Made by a program: the position numbers and the translations under genes. Below are positions 40,025-40,564 of a DNA stretch of 64,000 bases, in pieces. The stretch spans positions 1 through 64,000 of IMG/VR virus record IMGVR_UViG_3300021181_000010; one strand, 5' to 3'. The notes below the pieces were generated by a model that made no database searches, was not told the DNA's origin, and worked only from the letters and a program-made list of their open reading frames with translations. Every line of letters starts with the position of its first letter. Within the stretch, counting starts at the first letter, position 1. This DNA comes from a virus.

Positions 40025-40564
40025 TCACGATTGTTTGACAGGCGCAATCAGAGCGACAGCGAGTTTGCCATCTTGACGTGGAATCGATTCAGGCTTTCCA
40101 AATGGCTCCAGGTCGGCAATGAGACGTTTGAGAAGATCGTATCCAATGTTGGTATGAGCGATCTCTCGGCCACGGAACTGAACGACGGCTCGGACTTTGT
40201 TGCCGTCTTTCAGGAATTCAATTGCATGTTTCTTTTTGAAATCGTAATCGTGATCGTCAGTGTTTGGCCGGAACTTCAGTTCTTTGATGACGGTGACGTG
40301 TTGGTGACGCTTTGCTTCTTGTTTTTTCTTTTTCTCTTCAAACAAATACTTACCGTGGTCCATAACTTTGGCGACGGGCGGCTTGGCAGTTGGAGAAATG
40401 CAGATGAGATCAAGGTTGAGTGCTCTGGCTCGTTGGATTGCTTGATTGGTTGGAAGGATGACGTTGGAGCCATCTGGGAAGATTGTCCGAACTTCAGGAA
40501 ACCGGATACCTTCGTTTACGTTATCTTTGATTTTTGGTCGTGGGGTTCTTGGTTGATATGCCAT
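40025..40564 (-). CDS. infC: Translation initiation factor IF-3 homolog
   Basis: 179 aa; [20 protein letters not shown]...[94 protein letters not shown] follows the conserved IF-3 N-/C-domain sequence pattern. Confidence 0.8.
   Translation of the reverse strand: [179 protein letters not shown]

Follow-up and report, generated by a model that had tools for sequence, protein, structure and literature searches.

A phage-encoded IF-3 homolog, probably captured from a Bryobacterales-like bacterium, in a clade of ~400-kb T4-like phages

The locus and its phage context

The window analysed here, 64,000 nt in length, is phage DNA. Its genes, nearly all on the minus strand, include those for T4-type baseplate wedge and hub proteins (among them a gp5-like hub), gp25, an ATP-dependent DNA ligase, endonuclease VII, and an AAA ATPase. 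The gp6-like baseplate protein matches phrog_219 (2.5e-168) and shares no more than 40% identity with those of T4-like myoviruses of Methylophilales, Pelagibacter, and cyanobacteria. None of 50,697 GenBank phage genomes is nearly identical to the window, but an identical copy of the IF-3 protein described below (P0001) is encoded, with the same neighbours, on a 404,282-bp metagenomic contig in ENA; together with the gp5, gp6, and gp25 baseplate genes of the window, this places the IF-3 homolog in a bona fide phage genome of more than 200 kb. The features most relevant to the locus are:

19687..53054, minus strand (co-oriented with the IF-3 gene): dispersed array of 24-25 tRNA genes, with small ORFs between them
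38598..39392, minus strand: R2K-clade ATP-grasp, a predicted peptide/protein ligase (Pfam R2K_3 1.4e-15, R2K_2 9.6e-12)
40025..40564, minus strand: complete IF-3 (infC-type) coding sequence, 179 aa, ATG start, TAG stop
40313..40519, minus strand: IF-3 N-terminal domain, aa 16-84 (Pfam PF05198, E=3.7e-24)
40292..40357, minus strand: Lys-rich interdomain linker helix, aa 70-91 (AlphaFold2 model and charge)
40040..40291, minus strand: IF-3 C-terminal (30S-binding) domain, aa 92-175 (Pfam PF00707, E=3.8e-29)
40575..40581, minus strand: CTAAATA, a T4-like late-promoter-type motif, 10 nt 5′ of the IF-3 ATG

The original prediction had mentioned a large tRNA set near the IF-3 gene. ARAGORN finds 24 tRNA genes, all on one strand and spread from 19.7 to 53.1 kb, and Rfam RF00005 gives 19 matches, including one at 43211-43284 beyond the ARAGORN set. 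A phage initiator tRNA near the IF-3 gene was considered and rejected: in the CAT-anticodon tRNA at 43803-43879, positions 1 and 72 are paired and the anticodon stem lacks the three G:C pairs, so that by sequence it is of the elongator Met or Ile2 type.

The IF-3 gene is surrounded by DUF6847, small ORFs of unknown function, the R2K ATP-grasp, and endonuclease VII; the thrS-infC-rpmI-rplT operon context was not found at the locus. The R2K ATP-grasp clade has been proposed to act in phage-host conflicts. In two relatives of the window (L002 and L003) its gene adjoins that for IF-3, with an ATGA stop/start overlap, while two others (L094 and L006) have no R2K gene beside IF-3 and L004 has only a 23%-identical paralog 7 kb away. 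A tight IF-3-R2K operon was therefore discarded, the two genes being adjacent or overlapping in the closest relatives only; they are possibly linked, but inconsistently across relatives.

Identity and predicted fold of the IF-3 homolog

The span that had been proposed to encode an IF-3 homolog (40025-40564) corresponds to exactly one 179-aa ORF, on the minus strand, which had been left unstated. Both peptides quoted in support are present in it, although the second had been given one residue (an I) short. The sequence upstream of the ATG reads TAA TTA CAC TTA ATG, and this in-frame TAA four codons away leaves no alternative upstream start.

A profile search and a structure prediction had been suggested as checks, and both point to a two-domain IF-3. 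The TIGR00168.2 infC equivalog model scores 188.3 bits (cutoff 60) over aa 13-177, covering profile positions 4-169 of 170. The N-terminal domain scores 85.1 bits against PF05198 (IF3_N; cutoff 26.9; profile positions 1-70 of 70) and the C-terminal domain 100.9 bits against PF00707 (IF3_C; cutoff 34.8; profile positions 2-85 of 86), and the ORF also matches phrog_9787, "translation initiation factor" (1.7e-44). Among proteins of solved structure, IF-3 chains from 30S complexes of E. coli (PDB 8jsg, E=1.4e-37) and Thermus thermophilus (E=2e-36) align with the phage protein end to end.

An AlphaFold2 model built from a 40-sequence alignment (mean pLDDT 80) has the arrangement expected for IF-3: a beta-alpha-beta N-domain, a long linker helix, and a C-domain. 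The linker is predicted to be continuously helical over aa 70-87, includes the run KKKKQEAKR, and has a net charge of +4, like the linkers of cellular IF-3s. In a Foldseek search of the PDB, the six best matches to the model were all full-length IF-3 chains, of which five come from 30S-bound structures; taken separately, the predicted N-domain superimposes on 1tif with an rmsd of 1.9 Å over 71 columns (target TM 0.80) and the C-domain on 1tig with 1.5 Å over 87 columns (target TM 0.90). These results exclude a different RNA-binding fold with only superficial resemblance. By every sequence and predicted-fold criterion applied, then, the ORF belongs to the IF-3 family.

Donor lineage and likely host

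Cellular relatives were sought in one genome per GTDB species, which returned 554. The best 80 of these 554 are 56-63% identical (tblastn) and, with one exception, have Acidobacteriota names; the exception is a MAG labelled Bordetella parapertussis, which looks mislabelled. Within the same 80, 53 are explicitly Bryobacterales (Bryobacteraceae, Solibacteraceae, or Sulfopaludibacter). Several of the closest cellular IF-3s come from MAGs with isolate names (palsa, bog, fen, SPRUCE) that denote peat-type samples. Over its core, the window protein is 60-65% identical to Bryobacterales-type IF-3s and 40% identical to those of E. coli or Thermus; identity to the IF-3s of other phages is 32-47%.

The Bryobacterales are a group of Acidobacteriota abundant in peat and soil. 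To our knowledge hardly any lytic phages, and not a single jumbo phage, have been described for them. The literature searched yielded one jumbo isolate that infects Acidobacteriota, Tunturi 5, whose host belongs to the Terriglobales.

Since the nearest cellular IF-3s are acidobacterial, and mostly from Bryobacterales, the gene appears to have been captured from that lineage, which would then also be the likely host. Its sequence relationships are most simply explained if a Bryobacterales-like bacterium donated the gene once. Host inference of this kind agreed fully with host-phylum predictions from CRISPR spacers and taxonomic profiles in huge phages (Al-Shayeb et al., 2020). The cellular sequences were monophyletic in only 137 of 300 neighbor-joining (NJ) bootstraps, so that the phage clade may be either nested in Bryobacterales or sister to it.

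Comparison with the Bryobacterales proteins shows the same two domains and Lys-rich linker, collinear with the phage protein over the whole core. In E. coli numbering, both have K for R66 and Q for R129, and both start with an ATG at the same position. Unlike them, the phage IF-3 has no C-terminal tail and differs by R116 to E, Y70 to H, R168 to K, K87 to H, and Y75 to F; its gene also has phage neighbours and a late-promoter-type motif in front of it, while the Bryobacterales genes have cellular surroundings.

A clade of phage-type IF-3s under selection

The window protein has a graded series of relatives, from 88% to about 63% identical and 176-184 aa long except for one annotated as longer; clade members are found on four large contigs, of 404, 370, 375, and 400 kb. 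In a bootstrap tree of 28 phage-type and 92 cellular IF-3s, made with a custom NJ implementation, the 28 phage-type sequences were monophyletic, apart from the cellular ones, in 298 of 300 replicates. All 28 lack the P/A/K-rich C-terminal tail (median 21 aa) of cellular IF-3s, and the clade has G in place of A in the motif NVNE[G/A]IR as well as several other fixed differences. It has not been found in IMG/VR or in GenBank phage records: IMG/VR gave only two distant IF-3s, and no match to a degenerate pattern specific for the clade. The same pattern picked out 19 loci in a metagenome scan, with IF-3 in only 7 of them.

Compared to its 84%-identical relative in L002, the window gene has a dN/dS of 0.12; comparisons with more distant relatives are saturated at synonymous sites. 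It is also the best-conserved gene of its neighbourhood in L002 (84%, vs. 62-71% for DUF6847, R2K, and orf389). This low ratio, and a conservation greater than that of its neighbours, argue that selection has kept the gene through substantial phage divergence; judged in this way, the clade is under purifying selection. Evolution has been faster within the phage clade than in the cellular set (mean pairwise identity 0.70 vs. 0.82).

These observations bear on whether the gene might be a host contaminant, the product of a chimeric assembly, or a decaying passenger. High similarity to cellular IF-3s is what such an origin would give. Against it, however, phage-type genes lie on both sides on the same strand; independent assemblies from several samples contain the same gene, among them four contigs no shorter than 370 kb; its reading frame is intact, with the dN/dS given above, and the 46% GC of the window shows no break at the gene; and the missing tail and the G for A replacement amount to a clade signature of its own. 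This explanation is largely refuted, and hardly credible for the window gene.

The reading preferred here, to which we assign a probability of about 0.6, is that this is a functional bacterial-type IF-3, captured from a Bryobacterales-like host by an ancestor of a group of ~370-405 kb T4-like jumbo phages, and kept by purifying selection; it would aid initiation on host 30S subunits.

Start codon and late-promoter-type motif

Autoregulated infC genes of the enterobacterial type have an unusual start codon (AUU or AUA) that mediates repression of IF-3 by itself, and the original prediction had proposed looking for one. There is none: the gene starts with ATG, with no ATT or ATA between this and the in-frame TAA upstream. 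The start is also ATG in four relatives on large contigs, and GTG behind a Shine-Dalgarno (SD) sequence in L094. The closest cellular (Bryobacterales-type) infC genes have a conserved ATG start in 52 of the 55 loci examined, however, so the phage ATG would simply have been inherited and the AUU/AUA hallmark is uninformative in this case.

The CTAAATA upstream of the IF-3 gene is one of ten matches in the window, all on the gene-sense strand; 4.1 would be expected on both strands together, and none of 100 shuffled sequences reached ten. Other copies precede baseplate or virion genes (4933 and 6535), orf389 (38599), a tRNA-Gly gene (20232), and two further ORFs, at distances of 5-16 nt from ORF starts and 9 nt from the tRNA-Gly gene. 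Three gene starts (27164, 38593, and 48495) have it 5 nt upstream, and the orf389 homolog in L002 keeps this 5-nt spacing. In front of the IF-3 gene itself, L002 has CTAAATA at 10 nt, L004 has CATAAATA at 11 nt, and L006 has CTAAATA at 33 nt, followed by AGGAG; the motif is thus kept in these relatives though the flanking sequences have diverged, and their loci have the same strand bias.

CTAAATA is the late promoter sequence of the T4-like phage Aeh1, where it starts at -12 (PMC1524935). If it has the same role here, its position 5-10 nt before start codons predicts leaders of just 0-5 nt for IF-3 and several other transcripts; that of IF-3 would be about 5 nt long, with no SD sequence. Going by this motif, the IF-3 gene is probably transcribed along with the late genes. 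Searches of the surrounding sequence for sigma-70 promoters and for intrinsic terminators gave no candidates beyond chance expectation.

Functional residues and possible roles

Most residues with assigned functions in IF-3 are present in the window protein (E. coli numbering throughout). R25, which contacts the elbow of the initiator tRNA and is reported to be invariant in bacteria (PMC9723500), is kept here and in 27 of the 28 clade members. In Thermus 30S complexes, Arg91, Arg123, Arg125, and Arg159 of IF-3 adjoin the start codon and the anticodon stem-loop; these correspond to E. coli R99, R131, R133, and R168, and are R, R, R, and K in the window protein. D106, Y107, K110, E134, H137, and R147 are also kept, while position 66 has K in place of R, a replacement shared with the donor lineage.

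In the preferred reading, the C-terminal domain of the phage protein would bind the host 30S subunit and keep it apart from the 50S, so that the latter could not join prematurely, while the N-terminal domain and linker would proofread the start codon and the initiator tRNA. In this way the phage might raise or maintain its supply of 30S subunits competent for initiation during heavy translation of late proteins with its own tRNAs. Binding to the 30S, the timing of expression, and the benefit to the phage are the parts that we infer. The original prediction had suggested a takeover of host initiation. Supplementing the host IF-3 fits better than hijacking, given the 60-65% core identity to the presumed host protein and the retention of canonical functional residues. 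A benefit from simply having more IF-3 is not obvious, however, since an excess is inhibitory to some initiation events.

A related possibility is that the phage protein wakes up ribosomes in soil hosts that grow slowly and would have most of their ribosomes as idle or hibernating 70S or 100S particles; its anti-association activity, by preventing split subunits from rejoining, could enlarge the pool of free 30S subunits. The C-terminal domain, with its anti-association function, is intact; the peat, bog, and palsa isolate names of MAGs with the closest cellular IF-3s suggest an appropriate setting; and ribosome rescue was one of the two functions suggested for jumbo-phage IF-3 by Iyer et al. 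(2021), support of phage translation being the other. This overlaps the main explanation, though, and no RRF, EF-G, or HflX-like phage partner was seen in the window; as a separate role, it seems quite unlikely.

Against this conserved background, the phage clade has several changes at positions that are otherwise invariant. R116 is replaced by E, D, or N across the clade (E in the window), but is R in all 92 of the closest cellular IF-3s and in E. coli and Thermus. Two other positions that do not vary in the 92 donor-lineage proteins, E. coli, or Thermus are Y70, which has become H, E, or Q in the phages (H in the window), and K87, now N or H (H in the window). Y75, invariant in the cellular sequences compared, is F in the window phage and nine relatives. 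R116 is a residue that we take, from the arginine-scanning literature on IF-3, to contribute to 30S binding. The changes at R116, Y70, and Y75 suggest that IF-3 activity may be altered in these phages, rather than simply added to.

In the ribosome-binding domain a conserved basic residue has reversed its charge, as might be expected of an inhibitor or decoy: a dominant-negative protein that blocks host translation, or a sink for a toxin or defence factor of the host directed at IF-3. The adjacent R2K ATP-grasp, given the phage-host conflicts in which its clade is proposed to act, would not be out of place in such a scheme. A mere blocker, however, would not need the strong purifying selection seen on both domains, or the retention of nearly all canonical residues, and no known defence system targeting IF-3 was identified. 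Such a function is accordingly rated very unlikely.

The same changes could instead belong to an IF-3 of altered specificity, retuned (by R116 to E/D/N, Y70 to H/E/Q, R168 to K, and loss of the tail) to shift the choice of mRNAs. It might, for example, tolerate or regulate late mRNAs with short leaders or none, or compete with the host IF-3 on the 30S subunit and so put host mRNAs at a disadvantage. That the substitutions are clade-wide, at positions invariant in the donor lineage and beyond it, is consistent with this, as is the faster evolution of the phage proteins. The CTAAATA spacings (5 nt before three starts, conserved for orf389 in L002, and 10 nt before IF-3), with their predicted 0-5 nt leaders, supply potential targets, and leaderless translation is known to be modulated by IF-3 dosage and by infC fidelity mutants. 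One argument against such retuning is that the positions closest to the codon and tRNA are unchanged or have conservative replacements; others are that the transcription starts are inferred from the motif only, and that many other window genes are preceded by an AAGGA-like SD sequence. It is a possible but doubtful alternative to a largely conventional IF-3 that supports initiation on host ribosomes.

A more elaborate form of the proposal would make the retuned IF-3 (with its R116 reversal, Y70 and Y75 changes, and tail loss) co-adapted to the CTAAATA late programme, whose leaderless or 5-nt-leader mRNAs would include its own. It could license these mRNAs on host ribosomes, or else replace the missing AUU feedback with a leader-based autoregulation, and the adjacent R2K ligase might modify IF-3 or a ribosomal partner. 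As built here from sequence features of the locus, this is a speculative scheme and unlikely as a whole.

Relation to other phage IF-3s

Phage IF-3 genes have been documented before. Genes for IF1, IF3, S1, and S21 occur in phages of more than 200 kb and have been read as redirecting host translation (Al-Shayeb et al., 2020; PMC11748809), IF-3 has been reported in soil huge phages (PMC11748809), and the jumbo phages discussed by Iyer et al. (2021) as encoding it belong to their group 2.2. The gene also carries an annotation in the genomes of many isolates. The original prediction described viral IF-3 as mainly known from huge phages, which holds for the well-documented isolates, all jumbo; 65 GenBank phage records have an IF-3 gene, however, and these include entries of 41-52 kb.

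Although phage IF-3s have been catalogued, no functional or experimental study of one was found in the literature searched. With just a few defined differences from its donor lineage, the window protein is a clean candidate for distinguishing added capacity from changed specificity. Its gene also ties a clade of ~400-kb T4-like phages to the Bryobacterales, as far as sequence relationships can do so. What is added here to the existing catalogue is the assignment of a Bryobacterales donor and likely host, the conserved clade of ~400-kb phages, a short set of substitutions particular to the phages, and the setting of the gene behind a late-promoter-type motif with predicted short leaders.

Cultivated jumbo phages with an IF-3 gene include Atu_ph07 (Agrobacterium; AUZ94813.1), Phosso (Sinorhizobium), GAP32 (Cronobacter), XbC2 (Xanthomonas), and CBB (Pectobacterium); all have genomes of 350-490 kb with many tRNA genes, and a supporting role in phage translation has been discussed for their IF-3s. 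They are only 32-38% identical to the window protein, and so should represent separate acquisitions or lineages. The metagenomic huge phages of Al-Shayeb et al. (2020; e.g., LR756501, 735 kb) and the soil huge phages of PMC11748809 fall in the same category, with IF-3s 33-41% identical to that of the window and donor lineages that are likely different. On these comparisons, the window IF-3 is a new, separately acquired lineage of jumbo-phage IF-3.

In Atu_ph07, Phosso, GAP32, and XbC2 the IF-3 gene adjoins genes for Clp protease or adaptor proteins; this linkage was looked for at the window locus and is absent. R116 has also been lost in other phage IF-3 lineages, a suggestive observation that can be read as convergence only against the host IF-3 of each lineage. 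The IF-3s of the cultivated phages are more degenerate in general, having lost Y107, R147, and often R99 or H137, all kept in the window protein, which is the most canonical in a comparison with those of Atu_ph07, Phosso, GAP32, XbC2, and four huge metagenomic phages.

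Genes near IF3

The following features lie near the phage initiation factor gene (IF3, 40025-40564, - strand):

38598-39392, - strand: R2K-clade ATP-grasp protein (predicted peptide/protein ligase), beside IF3
39887-40012, - strand: 41-aa ORF, predicted to contain one hydrophobic helix, starting 13 nt past the IF3 stop codon
41042-41548, - strand: DUF6847 protein, two genes upstream of IF3

The ATP-grasp gene has a counterpart at 10537-11328 of L002, a locus on a 370-kb contig from a related phage. Both there and in L003, another close relative, its ATG and the stop codon of IF3 overlap as ATGA; this linkage is lost in more distant relatives. 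The targets of R2K-clade ATP-grasp proteins have been described as “elusive” (PMC4431377). The one beside IF3 may modify a component of the translation machinery. DUF6847 also precedes IF3 in L002 and L003, with no genes called between the two. The 41-aa ORF is absent from the gene calls of the public contig annotation.

The cultivated jumbo phages Phosso, XbC2, Atu_ph07, and GAP32 (L115-L118) have a different recurrent arrangement, in which IF3 adjoins Clp protease or adaptor genes (a ClpX-like ATPase or ClpS); no such pairing was seen in the window.

One of the cellular IF3 loci (L033, CALQCC020000009.1) comes from a MAG labelled “Bordetella parapertussis.” Its IF3 is of the Bryobacterales type and shares 61% identity with the query; the hits around it are acidobacterial. 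The label is probably a taxonomic error in the public record.

A putative late promoter

The heptamer CTAAATA is found at these positions in the window:

4933, 6535, 12812, 20232, 25839, 27170, 38599, 40575, 44139, 48501, all - strand

These copies are strictly strand-biased and lie just upstream of gene starts. CTAAATA probably serves this phage lineage as its late promoter. For three genes, those starting at 27164, 38593, and 48495, motif and start are separated by 5 nt, from which leaderless mRNAs are predicted. The arrangement is likewise kept at the L002 homolog of one of these, orf389 (motif at 38599).

The tRNA region

43211-43284, - strand: additional tRNA (Rfam, 39.6 bits), missed by ARAGORN, directly upstream of tRNA-Val
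43803-43879, - strand: tRNA with a CAT anticodon
49214-49816, - strand: 2OG-Fe(II) oxygenase of the AlkB-like superfamily (PF13532, 2.9e-20), among tRNA genes

An initiator role for the CAT-anticodon tRNA is ruled out by its paired U1:A72 and by an anticodon stem (CUUGC/GCAAG) missing the three G:C pairs; its T-loop (AUCGAAG) is also unusual. It could be an elongator Met tRNA or a lysidine-dependent Ile2 tRNA. The oxygenase may have a role in repair or modification of RNA or DNA.

An importer-like cluster and a vault-like protein

53851-58692, - strand: cluster resembling an ABC importer
53851-54690, - strand: ABC ATPase (PF00005, 4e-24)
55544-56404, - strand: BPD_transp_1 permease
56830-58692, - strand: 620-aa protein carrying an OmpA/peptidoglycan-binding domain at its C-terminus
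22906-25494, - strand: 862-aa major-vault-protein-like protein

The OmpA-domain protein is followed by a 362-aa protein without a family match. The cluster could represent an auxiliary module for transport. The vault-like protein is recognized by Pfam MVP_shoulder and a weak Vault_3 match; searches of PHROG and NCBIfam gave no matches. An 849-aa homolog is encoded by the L002 phage. A vault-like or SPFH-shoulder protein is unusual in a jumbo phage.
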